Shown: positions 2,274 to 19,742, counted from the stretch's first letter. The stretch is DNA of 19,743 bases from Vulcanimicrobiales bacterium (GCA_038231455.1 JBBRLI010000036.1:1-19743), one strand, 5' to 3'. Notes: a model not told the origin generated them from the letters alone. Numbers and translations are program-made.

Positions 2274-3577
2274 TCGACACGCGTGACGATTGGCGCACGG
2301 CGACGGCAGCCGGTCACACGCGCGCGAGCGATGGCGAATTGCTAATCGGCGGCGTTCGTGCGAGCAATCTTGCAAGCACGTATGGAACGCCCGCGTTCAT
2401 CATCGACCTTGAGGTCGTCGATCGCGCGATCGATGCGTTCGTTGCGGCATGTGCGCCGCACGACATCGGGATCGCGTACGCCGGAAAAGCGTTTCTCTGC
2501 ACGGCCTTCGCACGTCACCTTGCCGCGCGCGGCCTCGACCTTGATGTCTGTTCGCTTGGGGAACTGCTCACCGCGGAACGCGCGGGATTTCCGCCCGAGC
2601 GGCTCGCTTTTCACGGTTGCGGCAAATCCGATGTCGAACTCGACGCAGCGGCCGCCGGGCGCGTCGGCATCACGATCGTCGACGGCCACGAAGAGCTCGA
2701 GCGGCTTGCGCGACGCGCAAATCCCGCATCGCCGCTGACGATTTTGCTACGCATCAACGTCGGGATCGAAGCGCACACGCACGACTTCATTCGCACGAGC
2801 GGCGAGAACACGAAGTTCGGCTTTGCGCTCGACGAAGTCGATTCGGCCTTCACTCGGCTTCGCGAGCTTCCGGCACTGCGATGTCTTGGATTGCACGCCC
2901 ACATCGGCTCGCAGATCGCCGAGGCCGACCCGTACCACGCGAACCTGCGGACGCTTATGGAGACCGCAGCCCGCGCACGGGCGCACGGAATCGCCATCGA
3001 ACGGCTCATCATCGGCGGCGGCTACGGGGTCGAAGAAGCGCCCGGCGAGCGTGCCCCAATCGACATGGAAGCGCTCTTCGCGGGACTGGCGGGCGATGCC
3101 AAGCGCTTCGCCGCCGACCTGCACATCCCAATGCCGCACCTTGCGATCGAGCCGGGACGGGCGATCGTCGCCCGCGCCGGCACATCGCTCTATTCGGTCA
3201 TGGCGGTCAAACGCCAGGGCCGCCGCCGGTTCGTGGTCGCCGACGGCGGAATCGCCGACAACCCGCGGCCCGCGCTCTACGGAGCGTACCATCATCCACT
3301 TGTTGCACGCTCCGCGGCCGATGTGGCCGTAAGCGAGGCGACCATCTGCGGCCGGTCGTGCGAGAACGACGTTCTCGTCACCGCTGCGCTTCCCAATTCG
3401 CTCGCGAGCGGCGACTTGATCGCCCTGTGCACCACCGGCGCCTACACGTATGCGATGGCCAGCAACTACAACCGGTTCGGCAAGCCGCCGGTCGTCTTCG
3501 TCGGCGGCGCCGCGCATCGACTTGCGGTGCGCGGCGAACGACCGGACGACGTCCTGCGCAACGACCTTGACGCGTAA
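2270..3577 (+). CDS. lysA: Diaminopimelate decarboxylase
   Basis: YGTP, YAGKAF (PLP Lys), DVCSLGEL, KFG, HAHIGSQI, IEPGRAIV, DGGIADNPRPALY, CEND and TGAY.YAMASNYNR. The GTG start overlaps the nadD stop (GTGA). Confidence 0.95.
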   Translation: MIDTRDDWRTATAAGHTRASDGELLIGGVRASNLASTYGTPAFIIDLEVVDRAIDAFVAACAPHDIGIAYAGKAFLCTAFARHLAARGLDLDVCSLGELLTAERAGFPPERLAFHGCGKSDVELDAAAAGRVGITIVDGHEELERLARRANPASPLTILLRINVGIEAHTHDFIRTSGENTKFGFALDEVDSAFTRLRELPALRCLGLHAHIGSQIAEADPYHANLRTLMETAARARAHGIAIERLIIGGGYGVEEAPGERAPIDMEALFAGLAGDAKRFAADLHIPMPHLAIEPGRAIVARAGTSLYSVMAVKRQGRRRFVVADGGIADNPRPALYGAYHHPLVARSAADVAVSEATICGRSCENDVLVTAALPNSLASGDLIALCTTGAYTYAMASNYNRFGKPPVVFVGGAAHRLAVRGERPDDVLRNDLDA

Positions 3578-3983
3578 GGCGGCGCTCCTCCTCGGCCTGA
3601 TCCTCGCCGGATGCACGGCCGCACCGTCCGCAAACGACGGAAACGCGGCCGTTTTCGATGCATGGCGCGCGCAGCGTTCGCACATCGAAGTGACCGCAAG
3701 GGGCGTGATCGCCCGCGATTTGGGCACACGCGCCGGCGTTTCGGCGGCGCATGAGGGCTTTCTGCTCCACCTCGCCGGAGCAAGCGGGCGCGGCCTCACG
3801 GTCCGGGTTGAGGCCAATGTGGATTTCACCGGACCGATGCCGATCGCGGCGGGCGAAAGCGTCATCGTACGCGGCGAATATGAGTTCGATGCGCGCGGCG
3901 GCGTGATCCATTGGACGCATCGCGACCCGCGCGGCCGACATCCGGGTGGGTACATCGAAATTCAAAACAAGAGATACGGATAA
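3567..3983 (+). CDS. Small lipoprotein, DUF3465-like (OB-fold-like)
   Basis: A TTG at 3567, overlapping the lysA end, gives MTRKAALLLGLILAG-C (lipobox LAGC). HEGFLL, GEYE and GGVIHWTHRDPRGRHPGGYI resemble the DUF3465 family. The ORF-track start at 3450 is probably too far upstream. Confidence 0.75.
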   Translation: MTRKAALLLGLILAGCTAAPSANDGNAAVFDAWRAQRSHIEVTARGVIARDLGTRAGVSAAHEGFLLHLAGASGRGLTVRVEANVDFTGPMPIAAGESVIVRGEYEFDARGGVIHWTHRDPRGRHPGGYIEIQNKRYG

Positions 3984-7012: not shown

Positions 7013-8853
7013 TGCCGCTTCGTTCGCCGCTCCGCATTTTCGGTTTCATCGTGGCGCTTGCGATTGCGCTCGTCGCGATCGTCATTCGCCTCACGCAAGT
7101 CCAGATCGTGCAGGGCGAAACGTTTGCGGCCGCAGCACGTGCGAATCAAATTCAAAAGATTCCGGTCGTTGCGCCGCGCGGTCTCATCGTGGATCGTCAC
7201 GGAACGATCATGGTGCGCAGCCGACCGTCGTTCGTCTGCGCGCTCATCCCCTCACTCGTCAAAGATATCAACGCCGAGATTAAAGGCGTCGCGCGCGTCC
7301 TTGGCGTTCCCGAGGCGAAGCTTTGGAAACAGTTGCTTCACCATCACGGTGTCAACTACAAAGACTTCGATGAAGTCGCGATCTACGAGCCGTACGGGCC
7401 CGTGATCTTGGTGAGCGACCTCTCGACCGCGCAAATGGCGCGACTGGTCGAAGCGGAAAACGAACTGCCGGGCGTCGACGTCGAAGAACCCGCGGTGCGC
7501 AACTATCCGTATCACGGGTGGGGCTCGCATTTGGTCGGCCAAGTCGGCGCGATCACCGAAGATGAGTATGCAAAGCTCCGACGTTTGGGCTATTCATCGA
7601 ATGACGTCATCGGCAAAGCCGGGCTCGAAGAGAGTTACGACGGGTACTTGCGCGGCAAAAACGGCGGCGAGCAGGTCGAGGTGAACGCCTCGGGCGGTGT
7701 CGTGCGCAAGCTTCGCTCGGTCGACCCGATTCCCGGTAACACGCTGGTGACCGCCGTCGATTGGCGTTTGCAACGCATCGTCGAGAAGAATCTGATTACG
7801 CAACTGAAAAAGTGGAGCGTCATCCGGCATCATAAGTTGGCAGGCGCCGTCGTCATCATCGATCCGTCCGACGGCGGCGTTTTGGCGATGGCGTCGTACC
7901 CCGAGTTCGATCCCAACGACTTCGCAACGCCAATTAGTCAGACAAAGTTCTCACGTTACATGACCGACTCGCTGCGGCCGCTGTACAACCGCGCGATCGG
8001 CGCCGCCTCGCCGACCGGCTCGACGTTCAAGATGGTGACCGGCTCCGGCGCGATCAGCTCCGGCGTTATCAAGCCAAATCAGGTCCTGTACGATTCAGGC
8101 GCTTGGAACTGCCACGGTTTTACGTTCCGCGATATTGCCGCCGGCGGACTCGGTTCAACGAACTTCGTGCACGCGCTCGCCGCATCGAGCGACGGCTACT
8201 TTTATCAGCTCGGCGACCGACTCGGCCACGAACGCTTACGCTACTACGCGCTGCAATATGGGCTCGATCAAAAACTCGGTATCGACATCCCCGGTGAATT
8301 CGAAGGCAACTGGCCAACGAACGCATGGTCGATGCGCGTGTACAAACTACCGCTCGAGCCAAGCGACGTCTGCCAACTCGCGATCGGTCAAGGCGCGATG
8401 GAAGCTACGCCGTTGCAAATGGCCAACGTCACCGCGACCGTCGTGAACGGCGGCATCCTGTATCGCCCGCATCTCGTCGAGGCGATCCGCAATCCGAGCG
8501 GCCGTATCATCAAACGGTTCGATCACGAAGTGATTCGCAAAGTGAACGTCACCGCTGAAGCACTCAAAGAAGTGCGTGCGGGGATGGACAAAGTCACCGA
8601 TCCCGGCGGAACCGCCTACGGACTCAAAGTCGATGGCATTCCGTTCGGCGGAAAGACCGGCACGGCCGAAATCGGCGTCAACGGCGCCGGTTCGAACACG
8701 ACGTGGTTTGTCGCCTACGCGCCAAGCGATCATCCCAAGATCGCGATGGCCGTCTACATGGAAGGCAGCGGCAGTTACGGTGCGACCGTTGCAGCGCCGG
8801 TCGCGCAACATATCATCGCCGAATACTTCGGCAAGAAAATCCCACCGCTCTAA
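7012..8853 (+). CDS. mrdA: Penicillin-binding protein 2 (class B, elongasome transpeptidase)
   Basis: N-terminal TM, APRGLIVDRHG, RNYPY, GKAGLEESYD and LAMASYPEFDPN. Active-site motifs are STFK (SxxK), SSD (SxD, as in PBP2) and KTGT. TGATG coupling to mreD. Confidence 0.95.
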   Translation: MPLRSPLRIFGFIVALAIALVAIVIRLTQVQIVQGETFAAAARANQIQKIPVVAPRGLIVDRHGTIMVRSRPSFVCALIPSLVKDINAEIKGVARVLGVPEAKLWKQLLHHHGVNYKDFDEVAIYEPYGPVILVSDLSTAQMARLVEAENELPGVDVEEPAVRNYPYHGWGSHLVGQVGAITEDEYAKLRRLGYSSNDVIGKAGLEESYDGYLRGKNGGEQVEVNASGGVVRKLRSVDPIPGNTLVTAVDWRLQRIVEKNLITQLKKWSVIRHHKLAGAVVIIDPSDGGVLAMASYPEFDPNDFATPISQTKFSRYMTDSLRPLYNRAIGAASPTGSTFKMVTGSGAISSGVIKPNQVLYDSGAWNCHGFTFRDIAAGGLGSTNFVHALAASSDGYFYQLGDRLGHERLRYYALQYGLDQKLGIDIPGEFEGNWPTNAWSMRVYKLPLEPSDVCQLAIGQGAMEATPLQMANVTATVVNGGILYRPHLVEAIRNPSGRIIKRFDHEVIRKVNVTAEALKEVRAGMDKVTDPGGTAYGLKVDGIPFGGKTGTAEIGVNGAGSNTTWFVAYAPSDHPKIAMAVYMEGSGSYGATVAAPVAQHIIAEYFGKKIPPL

Positions 8854-8858
8854 TCCCG

Positions 8859-9377
8859 CTAGTCACTGCGATGTTCGACTCCGTCGGCCGTGCGCGTCCA
8901 GTGCACGTGGTCGGTCGAGACTTCCTGACGGAACTCGATCGTTCGCGGCGATCGGAACGTATTGACGATGCGCACGTCGAGTTGTTTGCCACGATCGTCG
9001 CGATCGCGCCACGGGTACGTCCACGTCTGACCTGCAATTCGAAGGTCGCCGGCCGGAGCCGGGGCCGAACCACCAACAATCACGTGCGTATGGTAAAGCG
9101 CGATCTTCGGGTCGTACGTATAAACGATTAGCGCGGCAGACGCTCCATTGACGAATTGATGGCACGTATAGTATTCGGCACTGCGCCAGCAATCGTTCCG
9201 CACGCGACTCGTCTCGGTTCGCGCACGGCTGTAGGCGGTTTTATGATGCACGATCGTCGTCGTCCAGGTGCCCCGGTACGCCGCGATGCGGGCGATTGGT
9301 GAATCGTCCATTGCCCCCGCAGCAGCGGCTCCGAGCGCAAAGGCGATAGCGATGAACGTCATGAGGCGAAAGCGCAC
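8859..9377 (-). CDS. Secreted/periplasmic hypothetical protein, predicted beta-rich
   Basis: Signal-peptide-like N-terminus (MRFRLMTFIAIAFALGAAAAGA), an early G.W motif (YRGTW), one Cys pair and alternating beta-strand patterns. Starts 2 nt after the receptor stop. Confidence 0.75.
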   Translation of the reverse strand: MRFRLMTFIAIAFALGAAAAGAMDDSPIARIAAYRGTWTTTIVHHKTAYSRARTETSRVRNDCWRSAEYYTCHQFVNGASAALIVYTYDPKIALYHTHVIVGGSAPAPAGDLRIAGQTWTYPWRDRDDRGKQLDVRIVNTFRSPRTIEFRQEVSTDHVHWTRTADGVEHRSD

Positions 9378-9379
9378 GA

Positions 9380-12300
9380 TCAGAACCCCAACTGGTAGTA
9401 AAACCGCAGCGAGCGCGGAGCGCGATTGGGTGCAATGATATACGGACCGGTGCCGCCGTTCAACTGTCCGCTAAAATTCGGCGCGATCCCAATACCCGGA
9501 AAGGCGAGGGCGTTGGTGGAGTAACCGGTTTTCGGTCCGCTGATCCCCGTCGCAACGACCTGGTACCGATTGCTCAACTGAGGTTGATTGTAGAGCTGGT
9601 TGAAGACGTTGCCCACGAGCACCCCAAAGGTCTGCTTACCGGATGCGGGCGGGGTGAATTCGAGCGATAGATTTGCAACGATACGCGGGGCACTCAGAAA
9701 TCCGCCGGCGCTTGCCGCCTCCGTCGTCCCGCGCGTCGCCGAAATATTCGGCTTGAGAAACGTGCCGGGATTTTGCGGATCGACGTAACGGTCAGCCGTC
9801 GCCGCGCCCGCTGCATTGGTGATGTTCGTGTTCGCAACATTGCGCGGTATGCCGTTCACGAAGGTCGCCGTATAGAGACCATCACCGATCGGAAAACCAC
9901 TATTAAAAAACGCAATCGGATTGATGCGAAACCCGCTTCGCGTCTTGTACGAAGCGGCAAGCGTGATGTTCAGTGGTGAGAGAAAGCCGACGCGATACTG
10001 ATTCCCGAGCAAGAGCGACGCGGTCGGGATAGCCGGAAAGAAATCTTCGTTTCCGGATTTCGGCACGACGTTGGTGAACTCGTTGAGATAGGTCGCCGAG
10101 AGTTGCCCGGAGAGCCCGACATTTGCTTCTTTGGTGAGATAGAATTCCACGCCCGTGGTGCGTGAGATTCCGAGGTTCGTAGTCGTCGGGGGGTTGAAGA
10201 TGACCGCGCCGGTATTCGGATCGGTTAGGATCGCGCCGTTGACGATGCGCGGCGATGCGACTTGCGCGAGTCCGTCGTAGCCTCGACGATAGAACGGCGA
10301 GATCTTGAACGCCACGTTCTTTGGGAACTGATGCGAATACGAGCCGTCGATATTCGTAAAGGTCGCGGCCTTCGCCGGCTGAATCGGCGTGCCGTTATAG
10401 TTGTTCGCATTTTCCCAATAGAGCTGGTCGGCATAGTCTTTACACGGGCGATCGCCGGTGGTGCCGCAGAACGTTGCCGGACCGCCGCCGTTCAAAGCAT
10501 TGTTTGACGGAATGCCTGCGAATGCGCGAAAGACGCTGGCTTGCGGCGTGAGGTCGATGAAGGCGAGCGATGGAATCTCGACCGATCGCCCGTACGAGAC
10601 GCGCAGCGCATCGGACTTGGTCAACTGGTAGGCGACTCCGACGCGCGGTTCCAGCACGCGTACGTGGCGCGTTTCATCGGAATAGTTGAATTGATCGAGA
10701 GCGGGATTTGGCGTTCCGATGAGCGCCGGATTGGCGCCCGCCGTCCCCGCCGTGTAGAGCCCCGTCGCGGTCGGCAAGCACGTTGCAATGGAACACGTGG
10801 GGAGGCGGAGTTGCGATCCATCCAAACGCAGGCCGGCGTTGATCTTCAGTTTGTCGGATGCCGTGAACGTGTCGTTGAGATAGAGCGCAAAATCGTTCCG
10901 ATTGGTGGCGGTCCCTTCATCGGTCGGCGGAACCGGTGGAAGGCCACTCGGAAAAAACTTCTGCCCATTTGCATAGTTGCCGTAGAGATAACCGCAGCCA
11001 CCCGCACCGAGCGGGCAATTGGGATCCGTCGGTGAGACGAAATCATAGGCTTCACCCGCATTGCCGAAGGCGCTGAAGAGCAAGAAGCCATCGGTGCCGG
11101 CCGGTTGACTGTACACCGGATGCAAGAATTCGTATTTGCCGCCGAACGTCAGTAAATGCTTCGATCCGATCTGCCGCGTGAGATCGAGCGCAAACCCCGT
11201 CCGCTCGCCGCCTTGCAGCGCCGTGAAATCTGACGCGCCGAAAAACGCGGTTGCGTCGTACGGAAAATCAAACGTGACGACCGACCCGACGCGGTAGAAC
11301 TTCGCCGTCAAGTATGTTGCCGCATCGAGGTTGTTCGAATACTGCACTTTGAATGTGTCATTCGGCTGATGCGTACCCGTCGGCGTACGATTGAGCTTCT
11401 GCGTTGCGGATTGCTGGTACTGGTCGAGCGTAATCAGCGACTGGATTTGCGTCGTCGTCAGGCCGGTAACGGCACGCGCGTTTGCAAGCCAGAATGGATC
11501 GTTCGATTTAAAATACAGATTGCTGAACCCGCCGTATCCTTGTGCGAACTCATTGGCTTGGTTTTGATAGAAGAATTGCAGCTGTTGGCTGTTGTCGCGA
11601 CCGAACTTGTAGATGGAATTCGTGACGAAATCCGCTGCGTTGTACGTCGAGCCACCGTAGAACGCACCGATCAGCGTGGCATCGCTATTGCGAGCGCCAA
11701 ACTGCGAGCCGGTGCGTTGTCCGATGAACGAAACATAGTTCGAGAAGCGACCGTTTGGCGTTGCAAAACCATACTCGCTGCGGAAGTAGTGGTTGTACGC
11801 AGGCGACGCAGCGTCGACTTCCACCGTACCGAACGGCGGGCGCGTCCCTTTGTTGGAGACGAGATTGATGACGCCGGTGCCGGAATTCCCAACCGACGCA
11901 TCGCCCGCACCCGGCGTGAGCTGGAGCGAGCCGACGCCATTGATGGAGAGCGTGTTGACGAATTGGCTCGTGAACGCATCGGTGTAGTCGATGCCCTCGA
12001 ACTGGAAGCCCTCTTCGTTTTCGCGGCCGCCCCGTAAGACGGGATACCCGCTCGAATCAAGTGACGCGCCCGGAAGTGCAACCAGCAGATTCGTTTCGCT
12101 CGTCCCGCCTTTCTTGCCGAGCACCGTGTCGATTTGGGCGGCGGTCACGGTGTACGTGTCAACGGTCTGGCCCGGCTGAAAGGCCCCGCCTTGGCTGCGC
12201 GCCGTCGTGCGGCCAATCGTCTGAAGTTGCTTTGAGAGTTGGATCGAGACGCTCGCTGACTGATCGGCAAACACGCTCACGCCTTGCTGTGTCTGTCGTT

Positions 12301-12556
12301 CGTACCCCGCGCCTTGAAAGGTGAGTGTGTACGTATCGGGCGAGACCCCGAGAAAGACGTAGTACCCTTGCGCGCCGGTCTTGGTCTCGTAGCGCCCGGT
12401 CGGCGATTGGGCGGTGACGGCCACGCCCGCGAGCGGAACACCGCCAGCGGTCACGGTCCCGGCGATTTGGCCGGTCGTGCCGGCGATGCCGCGCACGGGT
12501 ACGGACAAGAGCAAGACGATCGCCAGCGTAAGTGCGGCGCGCAAAAATTTTGACAC
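9380..12556 (-). CDS. TonB-dependent receptor-like outer-membrane protein with N-terminal carboxypeptidase-regulatory-like domain (Oar-like)
   Basis: Signal peptide, then GTTGQIAGTV...G.YVFLGVSPDTYTLTF (CarboxypepD_reg-like). Plug-like LLVALPG...LRGG...FEGID...GVINLV. Barrel strands ALYLNDTF..SDKLKINAGLRLD and EPRVGVAYQL. C-terminal FYYQLGF beta-signal. SD-like GAGGT upstream of the GTG start. Confidence 0.9.
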   Translation of the reverse strand: MSKFLRAALTLAIVLLLSVPVRGIAGTTGQIAGTVTAGGVPLAGVAVTAQSPTGRYETKTGAQGYYVFLGVSPDTYTLTFQGAGYERQTQQGVSVFADQSASVSIQLSKQLQTIGRTTARSQGGAFQPGQTVDTYTVTAAQIDTVLGKKGGTSETNLLVALPGASLDSSGYPVLRGGRENEEGFQFEGIDYTDAFTSQFVNTLSINGVGSLQLTPGAGDASVGNSGTGVINLVSNKGTRPPFGTVEVDAASPAYNHYFRSEYGFATPNGRFSNYVSFIGQRTGSQFGARNSDATLIGAFYGGSTYNAADFVTNSIYKFGRDNSQQLQFFYQNQANEFAQGYGGFSNLYFKSNDPFWLANARAVTGLTTTQIQSLITLDQYQQSATQKLNRTPTGTHQPNDTFKVQYSNNLDAATYLTAKFYRVGSVVTFDFPYDATAFFGASDFTALQGGERTGFALDLTRQIGSKHLLTFGGKYEFLHPVYSQPAGTDGFLLFSAFGNAGEAYDFVSPTDPNCPLGAGGCGYLYGNYANGQKFFPSGLPPVPPTDEGTATNRNDFALYLNDTFTASDKLKINAGLRLDGSQLRLPTCSIATCLPTATGLYTAGTAGANPALIGTPNPALDQFNYSDETRHVRVLEPRVGVAYQLTKSDALRVSYGRSVEIPSLAFIDLTPQASVFRAFAGIPSNNALNGGGPATFCGTTGDRPCKDYADQLYWENANNYNGTPIQPAKAATFTNIDGSYSHQFPKNVAFKISPFYRRGYDGLAQVASPRIVNGAILTDPNTGAVIFNPPTTTNLGISRTTGVEFYLTKEANVGLSGQLSATYLNEFTNVVPKSGNEDFFPAIPTASLLLGNQYRVGFLSPLNITLAASYKTRSGFRINPIAFFNSGFPIGDGLYTATFVNGIPRNVANTNITNAAGAATADRYVDPQNPGTFLKPNISATRGTTEAASAGGFLSAPRIVANLSLEFTPPASGKQTFGVLVGNVFNQLYNQPQLSNRYQVVATGISGPKTGYSTNALAFPGIGIAPNFSGQLNGGTGPYIIAPNRAPRSLRFYYQLGF

Positions 12557-12621
12557 AGGGGACTACCTCGCGGTCGGAGAGGGCTAGGTGCCCTCGATTT
12601 TCGCCCGCCGGGACCATCCGC

Positions 12622-12643
12622 GTCCTAAAAAAGTCCTCAAGAA
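12622..12643. repeat. Tandem 11-bp direct repeat (GTCCTAAAAAA / GTCCTCAAGAA), candidate wHTH operator
   Basis: Two adjacent 11-mers with 9 of 11 positions identical, in the 91-bp gap between the regulator stop and the receptor start. Confidence 0.6.
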
Positions 12644-12647
12644 ACGC

Positions 12648-14060
12648 TCAATCTTCGACCCAGGTCCGAAAGCGCGACGTGCGTGCGAGCGCGCTGAAGC
12701 GCGGATCGTGCGCGATCTGCCGACGCTCGCCCGGGCTCACCCGCGCCAGCCACACGTACGCAGCGCGCGCATCGCCGAGCGCAACATATGCCGCGGCCAT
12801 CGCCGATGCGTCCCAGTCATCGGTGGAATCGACGTCCGTCGTTCGTTCGGCCCGCGCGAGCCCGCCGATCGCGGCTCGCGAACGGCCGCGCAAGGCGTCG
12901 AGCCGCGCGGCAAGCGATGAAGCTTGCAGGCGCGTTCCGCGGTGCGCGGCGAGATCGACAATAACGGCCTCGGCCGCCACAAAATCGCGTCGCTCGATGA
13001 ACGCGTTTGCGAGCGTCAAACGGGCGATGGGCACGAGCGCATGCGCGCGCAGCATCTGCTCGGAGAAGGCGATCGCCTCACCATAGTCGCCGAGCAGATA
13101 ATCCGTCCAGGCAAGCGACGCGCGGGTCCCGGGCACGTCGGGCGCAAGCGATACCGCGCGCGCGAAGAGCCGCCGTGCTTCGGCGATGCGGCCCCGATTG
13201 AGAAGCAACGACCCTTGCCAGGCAAGTGCGCTCAACTCGTCGGGATTGCGCGCGAGGGCGCGAGCGAACGAGCGGCTCGCAGCGGCATCGTCGTGTTGTA
13301 TCGACATCTGGACCGCACCGAGCGCCGTGTCGGTCGCCGCAGACTGCGAATCGCGTCGCTGCGCGGCATCGGCATAGGCGGTCGCAAGACCCTGCATCTG
13401 CGTGCGATCGCTTGCAGAGCCCGCGTAGAACACGAGACTCGCGGCGACCTGCGAGCGACCCGCAAATCCGAGCGCGCTCTGCGGGTATGCGGCGGCGACT
13501 TGCGCGTAAAGCGCATCGCTGCGTTGCAAACTTGCAAGAGAGCCGCGCATTTGATATTGCTTGGCGAGCAGATACGCCGACATGGTGTTCGCATCGAGCG
13601 TTCCCGGTGCACGGTGGGTCACGGCGAAGAACGCCATCGCCACCACGACAACCGCAACTGCCGCACTCGCAAGCGTTGCGACCGTGCGCACGCCGCCAAC
13701 ACGCGCGCGCACAACCGGTTCACTTGCGCGCGCTAGTACGGACGGCACGTCCGGCAGCGTGCCGTTTACACGCAGCGCGTAGCCGCGTTTGGGGACGTTT
13801 TCGATGGCAAGACCGCACGACTGTTCTTTGAGAAACGCGCGCAGCACGTAGATCGTCTGGGTAAGATTCGCTTCGTCGACGTAACTCTCAGGCCACACGC
13901 GATCGAGCAGCGTGCGCTTATCGACGACTTCGCCGACGTGTTCGACGAGTTCGATAAGCACATCGACCGCTTTGGGTGCGAGCGGCACGGCGGTACCCGC
14001 GCGCCGAACGACGCGCTCATCCGGCGAGAGCTCGAGTAACCCAAACCGATACGGAGCCAT
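12648..14060 (-). CDS. OmpR/PhoB-type winged-helix transcriptional regulator with TM segment and TPR domain (ToxR/CadC-like)
   Basis: YRFG..., VPLAPKAVDVLIELVEH.GEVV, LLDRVWPESYVDEANLTQTIYVLR and IENVPKRGY (Trans_reg_C), with no receiver domain. Hydrophobic VATLASAAVAVVVVAMAFFAV follows, then TPR-like repeats (FARALARNP, FARAVSLAP). Confidence 0.9.
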   Translation of the reverse strand: MAPYRFGLLELSPDERVVRRAGTAVPLAPKAVDVLIELVEHVGEVVDKRTLLDRVWPESYVDEANLTQTIYVLRAFLKEQSCGLAIENVPKRGYALRVNGTLPDVPSVLARASEPVVRARVGGVRTVATLASAAVAVVVVAMAFFAVTHRAPGTLDANTMSAYLLAKQYQMRGSLASLQRSDALYAQVAAAYPQSALGFAGRSQVAASLVFYAGSASDRTQMQGLATAYADAAQRRDSQSAATDTALGAVQMSIQHDDAAASRSFARALARNPDELSALAWQGSLLLNRGRIAEARRLFARAVSLAPDVPGTRASLAWTDYLLGDYGEAIAFSEQMLRAHALVPIARLTLANAFIERRDFVAAEAVIVDLAAHRGTRLQASSLAARLDALRGRSRAAIGGLARAERTTDVDSTDDWDASAMAAAYVALGDARAAYVWLARVSPGERRQIAHDPRFSALARTSRFRTWVED

Positions 14061-14124
14061 AGGCGCTTGCCCTTACGCGCCCGCGCGAGCGCTCCTTCCG
14101 CTCGAGTCGGCGGTCTGCGAACCC

Positions 14125-14745
14125 TTATGCAGCGCCGAGCAGCGCGAGCACCGCGCGCATCGACTGCACGCGCGCCGGAACGGTGCAGTCGGCAAGGTAC
14201 GCATCGACGCGCACCATTTCTCCCGCCCGAGCGAGCTCGACGGCGGCGACGAGAGCAACGGATTCTTCGTCATCGCCAAGTCCCGCATCGAGCATTTCCA
14301 TATTGTGACGGCGCGCGAATGCCTCGAGCGCCAGCAGTCGTTGACCCGCCTTCGGTGAACGCATCGCAAGCGAAAGCGTGGGATCGACCGTACCGGCGCA
14401 CGTGCCGATCGCACCAACGATCACCTCGCGCATGTCGTCGAATTCTTCTTGATAGGCAAGCGCGAGTGCATCGGCGCACCACGGTTCTCCAACGAAGCCC
14501 AGTCCCTCAGCAAGACGACGACGCTCGTTCAGATCGAGTTTAGGCGGCAAATCGGCATCGACCAGATGAATCCACGTGAACGGCACGTGCACGGTGGCTG
14601 GGCCGGTCAGTTCGGCCGCGCCGCTGAGCGATGTCACGCCCGCGCGGGATTGCGATTGAATCGGCACGGCCGTGCGCGGCCAAAACCGTGCGACCGCGAT
14701 CAGGACGATTCCGAGAACCGCGAAGATGAGCGCCGGAACGAGCAC
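14125..14745 (-). CDS. Membrane-anchored hypothetical protein with HEAT-like helical repeats
   Basis: N-terminal TM (MLVPALIFAVLGIVLIAVARFW) and HEAT-like segments (RLLALEAF; LGDDEESVALVAAVELARAG). The GTG start directly follows the upstream TAA. Confidence 0.75.
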   Translation of the reverse strand: MLVPALIFAVLGIVLIAVARFWPRTAVPIQSQSRAGVTSLSGAAELTGPATVHVPFTWIHLVDADLPPKLDLNERRRLAEGLGFVGEPWCADALALAYQEEFDDMREVIVGAIGTCAGTVDPTLSLAMRSPKAGQRLLALEAFARRHNMEMLDAGLGDDEESVALVAAVELARAGEMVRVDAYLADCTVPARVQSMRAVLALLGAA

Positions 14746-17700
14746 TTAGCGTGCGTCGGAGGTGGTTGCTGTCGCTTCGAGTGACGCGCGCAGCGCCGCT
14801 TTGACATCCGCGAGCTTCGCATCGAGCCCCGGATTCGAACTCTCGGCGAGCACGCGATGAAATTCTTCGAGCGGGAGAGCGCTCACGTTTGCAAACGCCG
14901 CGATCAGTGCGCTGCGATACGAGCCGAGCACTTCGCTCGTCGCGCCGTCGACCGTGATTGTGGTGCCGAGGAATTCCGCGAGCACGAGCCACGGCAGAGC
15001 GGAGCCGAGCGCTTCGCTTTCGAGCGACGTGAGACGTGAAACAATGCGGTCGCGATCGATCGGCCCGCTGATGCGCACGGTCGCGGCTTGCGGCGGAATC
15101 GCGCCTTCGGTCATCGAGCGCGCGCTGCGCATCGCACCGATGAGTTCCATCAGCGCATTGCGCGAAGCACGGTCTTCGAGGTCTTTTGCCGTAAGCGAAT
15201 AGCGCGGTAACCGCAGCTTGATGAACAGGCGATCGAGCACGCTGCGCAGCGCATCGCGCTCGGCGCCGAACTTGGGCGTGACTTCACCGTCGAGACCGAA
15301 CACGCCCTCCGGGAAGAAACTGCGCACGACGAAGAGGTGCGAGACGAGTCCACCGTAGTCGGCTTGATCGATGAAAGCCAAGGCGCGCTCGACGGCGTCG
15401 CGCGAGAGATCCAAGTGCGAGACGAAGACGGGCGCGGGGATCGGCGGAAGCGGTGCGGGCGGCGCTAGTGATTCGACGGGTGCATCGGGTTCGACGACGA
15501 TCGCTTGCGGCATCGCAGCCGGGGAGACCGAAGAATCGACCGGTGTTTCCGGTGCGTGGGCAGGCGCAAACCGTGCATCTTCCGCATCGACCGGTGCGTT
15601 CGGCGGCGGCGACGCGGCATCGGGGCGCGCCGCGACCGGGAGCGGTCGCGGAAGCGCGATCGGCGCGGCCGGGAGCGTTCCGGGCTGGTGCTCGGCTTCG
15701 CGAACAAAGTCGCTTGCGCGCGGGGCGACGCCCGCAACGGAGAACGGCAGACCGCTCGCACGGACGGCGAACTGCGGCGTCGAGCGAACGCGCACGGCGG
15801 GCGAACTGACTTGCGTCGCGCCGGTACCGTCCCATGCCAGGTCGGCGTGCGCAGCGATCAGCGTTCCCGCGACAAGCGGCGTATTGACGATCGCGCACCA
15901 GCGCACGAGAACTTCGACGCCGGGACCGACATCTTCAAGCGCGAGGCCCGCTTTCGACCACAGCACCGAACCACCGGACGCATCGAGGAGCGGCACGTCA
16001 TTGACGGCCGTGGAGCCGGGAACGTAGGCGGTATGTTCGGGGAGCGCGACGCGAATCGTCGCGCGTGCGGCCGGACCGTCACCCGTATTGCGCACGGCAA
16101 GCACGAAATACATCGGTTCGCCCGCATCGACCGTTTCAATCGGCTGTGTACGCAGCGATGCGTTATGCGCGAAGTCGGCTTCGGCAAGCGTCGGGATCGT
16201 GAGCGGATCGAGCGCGAACGGCAAGAGACCGACGCCGCTTACGCGACCGCCGACGGCGATCGCCGATCCGCGCGGAACAAAGCGTGCGAGTCGAACGCGC
16301 AGCGTTGCATCGGCGCGCGCTCCGGCGGGCACATCGCCAAAGAGAATCGTATCGCCCGAACGCGTTGCACCATCGACACTTTCGATCCGCACGTCGGCGG
16401 GCAGATCGAGTGCGAGTCGCACGTCGCGTGCGAGGTCCGTGCCTTCGTTCTCGATGACAACGGCGATATCGGTCGAGCGGTTCGGACGCAGCGCCTCGCT
16501 TGAGACGAGCGCGAGACGCGAACTTTGCGGCGAGAAACGCGGACGCGAACGCGTCACGAGCGTTACCGCACCGAGATTGAGCGTGCCGGTTTCGCGCGTG
16601 CGCAGTTCCGCACTCACGCGCAGTTCGGCGCGATCCGCAATCGGCGATGCGACGGTTGCGAGCAGCACGATTTCGCGCGGCACGTTCGGCGCAAGATCGC
16701 CGAGGTCGAGCGTGTTGTTCTGCACGCGCGACTCTTCACCATCGACGCCGATGAAACGCAAAACGCCCAGACCCGCATCGGCAGTCAGGACGACTTGCGA
16801 GCCCATCGCTAGGGTCGTTCCGTCGTTGACGAGCGCGAGCAGAAAGCGCGCAATCGAACCCGGTGCAACGGACGCCGAACCATCGAGCGTCAGGGTATTA
16901 CGTGCGGGAGCAAAGCGCGGTTCTGCACGCACCGTGAACGTGCGCTCGAAGCGACGCGTGCCGCCGCCGTACCCAAGCGAAGAAACGACGCGAAGGTGCG
17001 CACCGTCCACGGCCGGCGAGACGACGTAGGCATCGAGCGCGACTTCAACGCGTTCGCCTGCGGGGACACGTTCGAAAGAAAAGAGTCCGGCCGTTTCCGC
17101 TTCACCGACGGACCGTCCGTCGATCGCGCGCGAGCCCGGCGCATACTGCAGCCCATCGGGCAAGTCGATGCGCAGCTTCACATCATCAGCAGCACACGTT
17201 CCGGCGTTGTATCCCGCAAGCGCAAGGCGGATTCGGCGACCCGGTTCGACGTCGCCTTCGGCATCGGCGAAGAGCGAGGTGCGTTCGTCATCGAACCGCG
17301 GCGCGGAATGCACCGGAAGTTCGGCGCGGTCGAGTTCGAATTCCGGAATCTCTTCGGCGGCGACGGCGCCGTAGACGAAGACCTTCGTTTCGTTGTCGAG
17401 CGGCGAATCGATCGTCGCACGATATTCGATGGTCAGCGTTGCGCCGGGTGCAAGCGCCTGAGCCGCGATCGGCGCGTGCGCAAAACCGAACGGGTCGCCG
17501 CGGTCGTCGGTGACAATCGGGCGGCCATCGATGCGTGCGCTGCCCGCGACGTAGCGCGTGCGGTCGGGGATCGGCAAGACGACGGTGACGTTATGGGCGC
17601 TGGATTGGCCCGCATTATAGATGCGCGCCGCAACGCGCAGATCTTCACCCGGTTCGGCAACGCGGACGGCTTCGATGGAAGCGACGGTTGCCGGATTTCC

Positions 17701-18150
17701 AAGGTCGGGCCGACTGCGAGCCGTGAGCGTGACGACATTGGACCCGATGACATCGGTCTCGTAGGAGGCAAGAGCCGCCTGCAGTTGGATCGTGCGACCG
17801 TTCTCGATCGTGGGCGCAACGACAAATGAAAGCGAAATGCGGCGTTCGACGCCCGGCGGGACTTCGCCGATATCGGCACCGTTCGCCGAGAGCAACGTTG
17901 CTTCGTCGCGCGGCTCATCGAGCGGCTGGTCGTCGATCTTCGTGCTGCCGGCAAGATAGCGCAGACCTTCGGGGTGCGTAAAACGCACGCGTAAGCCGGT
18001 CGCCGCGGCCCCGCCCATGTTATAGAACGCAAACGATGCGCGCACCGTAACTCCAGGTTCGACAATGCGATCCGGAGAAACGACGAGCGTTCGAAGGCCC
18101 TCAGGTAATGTTGGTTCGCCCGGCGCGAAAACTTCCGTCAGGGTCCGCAT
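14746..18150 (-). CDS. Large protein with six DUF11-like Ig repeats, a Pro-rich linker and a helical C-terminal domain
   Basis: Six copies of a PG-x..N.G...A..V....P motif, four of them with Y(V/L/A)(A/P)GS. Start is either ATG 18150 or GTG 18171. No signal peptide is evident from either start. Confidence 0.85.
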   Translation of the reverse strand: MRTLTEVFAPGEPTLPEGLRTLVVSPDRIVEPGVTVRASFAFYNMGGAAATGLRVRFTHPEGLRYLAGSTKIDDQPLDEPRDEATLLSANGADIGEVPPGVERRISLSFVVAPTIENGRTIQLQAALASYETDVIGSNVVTLTARSRPDLGNPATVASIEAVRVAEPGEDLRVAARIYNAGQSSAHNVTVVLPIPDRTRYVAGSARIDGRPIVTDDRGDPFGFAHAPIAAQALAPGATLTIEYRATIDSPLDNETKVFVYGAVAAEEIPEFELDRAELPVHSAPRFDDERTSLFADAEGDVEPGRRIRLALAGYNAGTCAADDVKLRIDLPDGLQYAPGSRAIDGRSVGEAETAGLFSFERVPAGERVEVALDAYVVSPAVDGAHLRVVSSLGYGGGTRRFERTFTVRAEPRFAPARNTLTLDGSASVAPGSIARFLLALVNDGTTLAMGSQVVLTADAGLGVLRFIGVDGEESRVQNNTLDLGDLAPNVPREIVLLATVASPIADRAELRVSAELRTRETGTLNLGAVTLVTRSRPRFSPQSSRLALVSSEALRPNRSTDIAVVIENEGTDLARDVRLALDLPADVRIESVDGATRSGDTILFGDVPAGARADATLRVRLARFVPRGSAIAVGGRVSGVGLLPFALDPLTIPTLAEADFAHNASLRTQPIETVDAGEPMYFVLAVRNTGDGPAARATIRVALPEHTAYVPGSTAVNDVPLLDASGGSVLWSKAGLALEDVGPGVEVLVRWCAIVNTPLVAGTLIAAHADLAWDGTGATQVSSPAVRVRSTPQFAVRASGLPFSVAGVAPRASDFVREAEHQPGTLPAAPIALPRPLPVAARPDAASPPPNAPVDAEDARFAPAHAPETPVDSSVSPAAMPQAIVVEPDAPVESLAPPAPLPPIPAPVFVSHLDLSRDAVERALAFIDQADYGGLVSHLFVVRSFFPEGVFGLDGEVTPKFGAERDALRSVLDRLFIKLRLPRYSLTAKDLEDRASRNALMELIGAMRSARSMTEGAIPPQAATVRISGPIDRDRIVSRLTSLESEALGSALPWLVLAEFLGTTITVDGATSEVLGSYRSALIAAFANVSALPLEEFHRVLAESSNPGLDAKLADVKAALRASLEATATTSDAR

Positions 18151-18212
18151 AACAGCAACGCGTCGTTCCACGGAACCAAGCGCCCGACCTTGACTGAAAA
18201 GGGGCCCATTTT

Positions 18213-19418: not shown

Positions 19419-19742
19419 TTACGACAGCAGTGTGGGTTCAGCCCATATTTCTGATGTGGCCTCCGTGTCGAAGGCGTATCCCGGTTCAAGAGCGAGGTAT
19501 TTCGCCAAGTCGGGACGCCTATGCAGCACGTGAAATGTATGGGTCGGCTGCATCGACTTGAATCCATCGATACTACCGTCATATTCGGGCGTCATCAAAA
19601 ACCAACCGGACATGTTGCCCGACGGAGCATAACGACAACCTTCAACGCGATCGGTCCGGCTTAACAGGCCCGGAGAGACCGCAATTTTTGCTCCAAAACG
19701 ACATTCGATCGATTCAGATCCGACGCGTTCGCAAGTATAGGA
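19419..19742 (-). CDS. Partial CDS (5' end outside the window), Imm33/DUF2185-like domain protein
   Basis: The frame stays open from 19613 to the window edge. Manual translation gives ...VEGCRYAPSGNMSGWFLMT...HTFHVLHRRPDLAKYLALEPGYAF, resembling the G.R....SGW...H...P...YL.L.PG..F pattern of Imm33-like proteins. Confidence 0.65.
   Translation of the reverse strand, partial: SYTCERVGSESIECRFGAKIAVSPGLLSRTDRVEGCRYAPSGNMSGWFLMTPEYDGSIDGFKSMQPTHTFHVLHRRPDLAKYLALEPGYAFDTEATSEIWAEPTLLS

Follow-up and report, generated by a model that had tools for sequence, protein, structure and literature searches.

A membrane regulator, a repeat and an exchangeable middle gene, here an Oar-class receptor, in a Vulcanimicrobiales bacterium

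Why should a DNA-binding membrane protein be encoded beside a TonB-dependent receptor and a small secreted protein? This arrangement occurs in the stretch of DNA analysed here (hereafter the window), which is one whole contig of 19,743 bases (C36) from a Vulcanimicrobiales bacterium, so that genes past its ends are out of view. The genome (G000) is a metagenome-assembled genome (MAG) of 3.7 Mb in 106 contigs and is 93.7% complete; it belongs to an uncultured soil bacterium that its named relatives assign to Vulcanimicrobiota/Eremiobacterota. Positions 8859-14060 are filled by three co-oriented minus-strand open reading frames (ORFs), a regulator that we call REG, the receptor, and a small protein that we call SMALL. 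An earlier note on this DNA had recognised the three genes, and in their layout we agree with it; it had also proposed that they form a trans-envelope loop in which the receptor takes part in signalling. Our best reading is that of a local regulator of an ordinary kind, whose cargo can be replaced, rather than of a new signalling loop, because REG adjoins a conserved repeat, SMALL and an exchangeable gene slot. We put the probability that REG is a ToxR/CadC-like one-component regulator activating the adjacent cargo-SMALL operon from this repeat at roughly 0.55.

REG (12648-14060, minus strand; 470 aa) looks like a bitopic ToxR/CadC-like one-component regulator. Pfam, NCBIfam, hydropathy and an AlphaFold2 model all bear out the earlier description of a winged helix-turn-helix (wHTH), a transmembrane (TM) segment and a tetratricopeptide repeat (TPR) region without a receiver domain. 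Pfam Trans_reg_C (PF00486) matches aa 22-96 (E 1.4e-12; 47.9 bits against a cut-off of 26.2), and several Pfam TPR families match aa 241-387. There is one hydrophobic segment, with the top 19-residue Kyte-Doolittle window at aa 130-148 (score 2.51); here and below, TM and signal segments were judged by hydropathy and model rather than by a dedicated topology or signal-peptide predictor. The AlphaFold2 model, built from 20 orthologues, has a mean pLDDT of 86.3 and consists of the wHTH (1-98), a low-confidence linker (101-127), a long helix (128-148) and an all-helical repeat (157-469), for which Foldseek returned generic TPR superhelices only (consensus TPR proteins, OGT, PilF). The best NCBIfam match was HilA/EilA (67.4 bits, E 7.8e-19, cut-off 589), its best-matching stretch being the wHTH only (aa 22-97), and the CadC equivalog scored 52 bits against a cut-off of 400. 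Both equivalog scores lie far under their curated cut-offs, and REG was rejected as CadC proper or HilA/EilA proper. No Response_reg or kinase family was found in REG or the other window ORFs scanned. Moreover, the 15 other ORFs scanned (among them obg, nadD-like, lysA-like, DUF3465, maf, mreBCD, PBP2, a DUF11/CARDB protein, an aminotransferase and an Imm33-like ORF) contained no kinase, sigma or anti-sigma family, in agreement with the earlier note. An Arg-rich segment precedes the TM helix and the wHTH must reach DNA; we therefore infer a cytoplasmic wHTH and a TPR part (~157-470, ~310 residues) that faces the periplasm.

Comparison across genomes separates the constant parts of this unit from a variable one. 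All relatives are MAGs or metagenome contigs, and loci from different searches possibly come from the same genomes, so arrangements were counted rather than genomes. REG, the repeat that directly follows its stop codon, and SMALL at the end of the unit are constant, whereas the middle gene differs between loci. In five loci (L019, L022, L057, L058, L059) it is a ~280-aa signal-bearing BD-FAE/Abhydrolase_3 esterase; in the window and two metagenome contigs (L131, L132) it is the receptor; in L018, from the same-genus genome G001, and in L054 it is an ORF of 83 codons. REG and SMALL are directly adjacent in L020 and L056. This last arrangement rests partly on G029, which also enters the repeat alignment, the repeat matrix and the REG tree described below; G029, G048 and G020 are genomes flagged as unpublished, and claims using them rest on such data. 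Finally, REG stands alone in L034, L133 and L134. The gap between the middle gene and SMALL is 2 nt in the window, 10 nt in L131 and 7-26 nt in the esterase loci. A search of the window's genome with the module esterase found relatives of 37% identity only, and no orthologue with this query.

The REG family is present in 35/61 related genomes and SMALL in 16/61, the window's own counted. Four of the 16 fetched SMALL loci (L018, L019, L020, L022) have a REG orthologue just upstream on the same strand, with a whole receptor between the two in 0/4. A wider set of 77 SMALL loci from species-representative genomes spans Vulcanimicrobiota, Acidobacteriota and Gammaproteobacteria; REG lies upstream in 6/77, all six Vulcanimicrobiota, and a full receptor adjoins SMALL in 0/77. 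From 25 sampled SMALL loci, the 22 that could be annotated show varied neighbours outside the Vulcanimicrobiota REG-SMALL group. Similarly, tblastn detected a receptor or SMALL in 0/20 further REG-homologue loci (one orthologue and 19 paralogues at 28-34% identity), and the 122 neighbour proteins scanned there contained no TonB family match. The two receptor-bearing metagenome contigs, almost the same in sequence, differ from the window in their flanks and read REG (63%), an 85-nt spacer, receptor (83%), a 10-nt gap and SMALL (59%). Conservation of the three-gene neighbourhood is thus borne out in these contigs and fails in the 77 genome SMALL loci and the 20 REG-homologue loci. Three more of 80 metagenome REG-relative loci had weak receptor-like matches within 6 kb, downstream on the same strand in L140 and upstream on the opposite strand in L151 and L197.

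The non-coding constant is a tandem direct repeat (12620-12647, minus strand) whose first base directly follows the REG stop. The window's copy, GCGTTTCTTGAGGACTTTTTTAGGACGC, runs from 12647 down to 12620 and has the halves TTTCTTGAGGAC and TTTTTTAGGAC; the family consensus, GGCTTCTTTGAGCGATCTTTGAAG, is TCTTTGA twice with an 11-nt period over ~24 nt. It aligns in 9/9 REG-(X)-SMALL loci whatever the cargo and in 8/9 follows the REG stop without a gap; the remaining spacer sequence cannot be aligned from one cargo type to another. Proteins with a wHTH of the OmpR/PhoB/ToxR type usually bind direct repeats spaced by about one helical turn, and the repeat is therefore the best candidate for a REG operator, to which REG would bind. 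It also predates the arrival of the receptor at the locus. A matrix built from six esterase/direct loci only, with receptor-type sites left out, was run over both strands of the whole genome; the window repeat scored 12.8 bits and ranked 64 of 7,416,830 positions. By a strict half-site regex, which missed several true sites and was used for the window only, the two half-sites of the window are the only same-strand matches in the ~9 kb scanned. Two loci have unusual copies. In the ninth aligned locus, L022 (G028), REG lacks its usual stop and the ORF extends by ~11 codons through the repeat, and L058:6014-6065 has about four tandem copies with periods of 11-13 nt, the other loci having two.

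The rest of the 91-nt REG-receptor spacer (12557-12619, minus strand) may contain a promoter and leader. The repeat ends 32-35 nt before the next start codon in the five esterase/direct loci read, and in these a TAnnnT-like hexamer follows TGAAG by 20 nt and precedes the start by 6-9 nt (TACGAT, TATCCT, TACGCT or TATCGT; CAGCAT in G017). In the window spacer, the repeat is followed at ~21 nt by an A-rich GAAAAT (about 12597-12602), and GAGG precedes the receptor's GTG by 11 nt. The receptor loci share this layout, with GAAAAT, or GACAAT at the same place in L131, at ~21 nt and then a ~40-nt leader with GAGG.

Where did the receptor itself come from? It is an Oar-class TonB-dependent outer-membrane transporter (9380-12556, minus strand; 1058 aa with a C-terminal Phe), made up of a signal peptide, CarboxypepD_reg, a plug-like region and a barrel. 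Pfam places CarboxypepD_reg (PF13620) at aa 30-108 (E 1.5e-13) and the TonB_dep_Rec barrel (PF00593) at aa 416-874 (E 4.4e-13). The Plug HMM (PF07715) was not detected in the whole receptor, nor, at E <= 10, in aa 110-260 alone; for aa 110-420, 30/30 of the nearest named ESM-Atlas clusters carry Plug PF07715 (score 0.96). The motif DTYTVTA at aa 133-139 (window 12140-12160) resembles TonB boxes. A search of the genome for TonB_C, which did not extend to ExbB and ExbD, found seven matches above the cut-off, in keeping with a Ton system, and phmmer with the receptor as query found no PDB sequence at E <= 0.001. With the Myxococcus xanthus protein Oar, the receptor shares a length of ~1,060 aa, PF13620 before the plug region, a PF00593 barrel and the absence of STN (PMC6434023, in part). 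It departs from that class in its undetected Plug HMM and in having no PDB sequence relative at the above threshold.

At the protein level the receptor is 75% identical to a paralogue in its own genome (C11:40389-43556); the DNA of the two is 71% identical, in the coding region only (window 9382-12491). In the receptor tree the window copy pairs with that of L131 (100/99), and the pair is sister to the C11 copy (100/100). The closest receptor homologues, namely C11 and eight in other genomes, are directly followed by a homologous lipoprotein of ~340-357 aa in 9/9 loci. Given this sister relationship and the lipoprotein in all nine closest loci, the window receptor evidently arose, on sequence comparison, by duplication of the receptor gene of a receptor-lipoprotein pair, and was set between REG and SMALL without its partner. 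The C11 lipoprotein (G000:C11:39312-40385) has an LTAC lipobox and begins 3 nt after the receptor stop; the other loci are L211-L218, and Pfam found nothing in three of these partner lipoproteins. We flag this conserved, unnamed family, which accompanies the Oar-like receptor clade, for study.

The sister species (G001) offers a natural control, since its locus has no receptor. Its 83-codon ORF (L018:7780-8031), in which receptor aa 1-65 continue in frame into aa 1042-1058, is the remnant of a ~2.9-kb receptor deletion whose junction lies at a short ACCGG/TA similarity between both ends. REG of the two species is 93.6% identical over aligned residues (dN/dS 0.09) and SMALL 90.7% (dN/dS 0.11). 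These ratios are like those of the flanking genes PBP2 (0.04) and DUF11 (0.06), which indicates that both REG and SMALL have remained constrained in a genome that lacks the receptor. The receptor-less allele may be the commoner of the two, because the protein database contains eight REG proteins of ~90% identity and every one is of the sister-species type (seven of 456 aa, the sister length, and one of 461 aa).

In a maximum likelihood tree of 12 REG orthologues, rooted with 3 paralogues, the three loci with REG alone are sister to a clade of nine (support 93/90). The esterase rows are paraphyletic within this clade and the direct row falls among them, and L131, G000 and G001, the receptor-type rows, are nested together as a single clade (99/99) whose neighbour is the esterase-type G017. 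We infer that the esterase was the ancestral cargo. The simplest history would begin with an esterase-bearing ancestor; the esterase would have been replaced by the receptor once and lost once, and the receptor later deleted once.

Taken together, these data suggest the following mechanism. REG would sit in the inner membrane with a cytoplasmic wHTH, one helix across the membrane and a periplasmic TPR solenoid that senses something. Bound to the tandem direct repeat that follows its stop codon, it would activate the promoter for the next genes, that is, the cargo gene if present and then SMALL. A secreted BD-FAE esterase would be the cargo of the ancestral arrangement; in the window's lineage it would have been replaced once by a duplicate of an Oar-class receptor, copied without the usual lipoprotein partner, and the same REG, operator and SMALL would now drive the receptor. 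SMALL would be a secreted barrel that binds small molecules or acts as a catalyst, and most of its homologues would work alone. The earlier note's idea of promoter activation without a sigma pair survives here in part, in that REG probably acts on the next promoter (through the repeat at rank 64), and the dependence on a receptor loop falls away.

Several points weigh against this scheme. Three REG orthologues (L034, L133, L134) have neither the repeat directly after the REG stop nor SMALL downstream, so that REG can work with other targets. The repeat matrix is weak, because 63 other genome positions score at least as high as the window repeat and the four best inspected (C14, C26, C8, C3) lie in unrelated contexts, none before an obviously related gene. 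Among the nine aligned sites are some from close relatives (the pair G000/G001) and maybe some from duplicate genomes, and ORFs of relatives were called by our own GC3 heuristic and not by a gene finder. Consensus scans of 8600-14900 found no sigma-70 promoter and no terminator in the REG-receptor spacer, with counts near shuffle expectation (promoter-like 3 vs 1.5; terminator-like 9 vs 6.5); since the promoter scan saw nothing, the promoter and leader proposed above are only putative. A sequencing-run search with the locus returned no RNA run and one DNA run with 0.97 of its words, which may be the source sample. The repeat could, moreover, serve another protein or have a role at the RNA level.

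The three loci with REG alone have a feature of their own. A co-oriented ORF of ~395-433 aa lies directly upstream of REG (L133:4753-5943, L134:4754-5941, L034:9036-10337), with a signal-like N-terminus in L133 and L134 and no Pfam family in the L034 copy. It may be another type of cargo on REG's other side.

The rival explanations, not all of which exclude the mechanism above or each other, turn largely on SMALL (8859-9377, minus strand; 172 aa). As the earlier note had it, the GTG start lies 2 nt past the receptor stop (TGA-TC-GTG), and the N-terminus is a hydrophobic signal-like segment. None of its 20 homologues at E <= 1e-26 has a Pfam domain on record, and in the alignment N61-D-C-W-R-S66, C72 and Q74 are invariant (an NDCWRS...C..Q motif with the cysteine pair C63 and C72). 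SMALL itself has no Pfam match at E <= 0.1; DUF1579 (PF07617) matches weakly in 9/21 family members (best E 1.7e-4). The AlphaFold2 model (pLDDT 87.6) has an N-terminal helix and then ten strands. VIA-align matched it to FABP-like Ycf58 (Z 15.0, 134 residues, rmsd 3.0), the bilin lyase CpeS (Z 13.8), the spirocyclase OlmO (Z 13.7), a Riemerella haemophore (8xjc; Z 12.9 over 148 residues), the anti-sigma factor RsfG (Z 11.5) and nitrobindins (Z ~10), all at 5-12% sequence identity, and Foldseek agreed. On the strength of the model and these matches, SMALL is classed as a secreted calycin-type barrel of the 10-strand kind, like nitrobindin and the FABP-like Ycf58-CpcS and OlmO barrels; it differs from these and from DUF1579 in being secreted and in having its own invariant NDCWRS motif and cysteine pair. 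Barrels of this kind usually bind tetrapyrroles, lipids or polyketides, and the fold alone does not give the ligand of SMALL. In seven Gammaproteobacteria MAG loci (L087, L095, L096, L101, L110, L123, L125) SMALL homologues stand in tandem arrays of 2-3 diverged copies, the extra copies having 27-34% identity to the query.

Could REG and SMALL form a co-component sensor like ToxR/ToxS and VtrA/VtrC, with SMALL docking on the TPR domain and its inducible expression acting as feedback? They are the two constant genes across all cargo types, and the calycin-type fold modelled for SMALL is one with a ligand-sized cavity. VtrC and ToxS are lipocalin-like partners encoded downstream of membrane-bound wHTH regulators, and the unit similarly has a co-oriented gene for an exported calycin-type barrel downstream of REG (PMC9214523, in part). 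However, SMALL homologues have no REG match in 71/77 genome loci, those of Acidobacteriota and Gammaproteobacteria with varied neighbours included, and three REG orthologues have no SMALL downstream. The periplasmic part of REG is a large TPR solenoid and not the small alpha-beta domain of VtrA and ToxR, and SMALL has 10 strands, nitrobindin/FABP-like neighbours and a signal-like N-terminus, in contrast to a TM-anchored barrel of 8 strands (PMC9214523, in part). The two genes, moreover, are usually split by an esterase or receptor gene, are directly adjacent in L020 and L056 only, and never overlap. VtrC and ToxS were not among the Foldseek and VIA-align matches listed for SMALL, which does not exclude likeness to them. 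An obligate pair was rejected on the 6/77 SMALL loci with REG upstream and the three REG orthologues without SMALL, and we regard the co-component reading as a whole as unlikely.

We are equally doubtful that receptor and SMALL are a working pair, in which SMALL would be a haemophore-like scavenger or, like PopC, a substrate exported through Oar. The narrow gaps (2 nt here, 10 nt in L131) would fit such a pair, as would the place of SMALL, which occupies the position of the lipoprotein lost from beside this receptor and kept in 9/9 of its closest homologues, and so would the alignments to the Riemerella haemophore and the nitrobindins. Against this, a full receptor adjoins SMALL in none of the 77 genome loci, the adjacency being seen only in the window, L131 and L132, and SMALL was kept after the loss of the receptor in the sister species. 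SMALL has no sequence similarity to the lipoprotein partner by BLASTP (best E 6.5), and its better-scoring fold matches are bilin lyases and polyketide spirocyclases. A receptor-SMALL pair would be possible only as a lineage-specific novelty. A haemophore-receptor pair was rejected because the adjacency is not conserved, the link to haem being a likeness of modelled folds only.

A fuller version of the REG-SMALL proposal, slightly less probable again, would be a co-component sensor outside the enteric VtrA/VtrC superfamily with a captured Oar-class TonB transporter. Here the barrel would capture a small hydrophobic or tetrapyrrole ligand and present it to the TPR solenoid, switching the wHTH on the adjacent operator. 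If this were true, the sensing, the binder and the outer-membrane transport of one compound would be co-induced without a sigma factor.

The loop through the receptor, as the earlier note had proposed it, is improbable. In it the periplasmic TPR domain senses the imported ligand, the N-terminal extension of the receptor or SMALL, and induces the receptor as a dedicated sigma-independent surface-signalling system. TPR domains do bind peptides or proteins, and an operator-like repeat does precede the receptor. The recurrence of the trio in two metagenome contigs with other flanks, at 59-83% identity, implies that it has been kept for some time. However, in most loci the REG clade and its candidate operator precede the esterase or SMALL alone. 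The sister species has only the 83-codon remnant, with REG and SMALL at dN/dS ~0.1. Receptors are absent from the 20 other REG-homologue loci by tblastn, and only 3 further of the 80 metagenome REG relatives have a weak match nearby. The receptor, moreover, has no STN signalling domain (PF07660) at E <= 0.1, its N-terminal extension being the Oar-type PF13620, which is distinct from the STN of signalling transporters (PMC6434023, in part). FecA/FecR/FecI likewise place a receptor gene under a regulator that spans the inner membrane; the unit differs in the missing STN, in the absence of sigma/anti-sigma genes from the window and in a regulator that is predicted to bind DNA itself. On the missing STN and on the absence of ECF sigma or FecR-type genes among the window ORFs scanned, a FecA-type signalling receptor was rejected.

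As little probability attaches to a neighbourhood without regulation, in which REG would control distant genes and the downstream genes and repeat would be linked by descent only: better-scoring matrix sites elsewhere in the genome and three REG orthologues with other downstream genes would suit it, but the non-coding element keeps the same base offset though REG identity falls to 42-55% and the cargo changes, and REG-(X)-SMALL moves as a block through different genomic contexts.

How far, then, does the local regulator with replaceable cargo depart from known systems? Like the ToxR/CadC-like transmembrane transcription regulators (TTRs), REG is predicted to have an N-terminal OmpR/PhoB-type wHTH, a single TM helix and an extracytoplasmic C-terminal sensor, with no receiver domain or kinase and an adjacent envelope-protein gene that it likely controls; unlike in CadC or ToxR, the sensor is a TPR solenoid of ~310 residues and not their periplasmic fold. 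With HilA/EilA/YgeH, its best NCBIfam match, REG shares a ToxR-type wHTH and TPR repeats, but it has a TM helix between the two, whereas HilA is cytoplasmic. From VtrA/VtrC and ToxR/ToxS the unit is set apart also by the cargo gene that usually lies between and by a SMALL family mostly without a regulator. The closest homologues of the receptor pair with a lipoprotein; here it has REG upstream and SMALL downstream instead. A survey of TTRs reports that membrane-bound wHTH regulators are widespread (PMC10269533, in part), and a term search of its main text gave no 'TPR' or 'tetratricopeptide'.

The known examples of membrane-bound one-component regulators come for the most part from a small number of enteric pathogens. 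The present locus would add a variant with a TPR sensor from a nearly uncultured phylum, with a candidate operator readable from comparative data alone. There is clear evidence for an exchange of the presumed target gene, with regulator, candidate operator and last gene staying in place, which makes this a simple and testable case of a local cassette gaining new cargo. It is also a warning that the adjacency of a regulator and a receptor is not to be read as a signalling loop. Membrane-bound wHTH regulators, the Oar class and calycin barrels are all already known; in the literature searched we found no study of the regulator-repeat-barrel unit, of its cargo exchange or of the SMALL family. A search for DUF1579 found no papers, and one for Eremiobacterota and TonB-dependent proteins found none on topic by title or abstract. 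The secreted NDCWRS barrel is thus an unnamed family spread over three phyla, which we flag for study.

Lastly, we note some features around REG and its relatives. Half (10/20) of the loci of REG paralogues (28-34% identity) have a ~720-790-aa protein encoded head-to-head with the regulator (L036, L037, L040, L043, L044, L046, L047, L048, L051, L052). These proteins gave weak matches to DUF5916 in 6/6 scanned (E 4e-6 to 1e-3) and to CBM9_1 in 3/6; genes for an M48-RDD peptidase and an aldo-keto reductase are also frequent neighbours of REG paralogues. In the window, a 206-aa ORF (14125-14745, minus strand) lies between the DUF11 protein and REG; it has gene-like codon bias and no Pfam family, and is kept in the sister species at 87% identity (dN/dS 0.15). 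Next to it is a 1141-aa protein with DUF11, CARDB and NPCBM_assoc repeats (14746-18171, minus strand), probably a large surface protein, which is 92% identical in the sister species. An ORF with an Imm33-like immunity-type domain (19419-19742, minus strand) runs off the contig end. On the plus strand, the DUF3465 ORF (3450-3983) overlaps the end of the lysA-like gene, if the latter is called from its first start codon.

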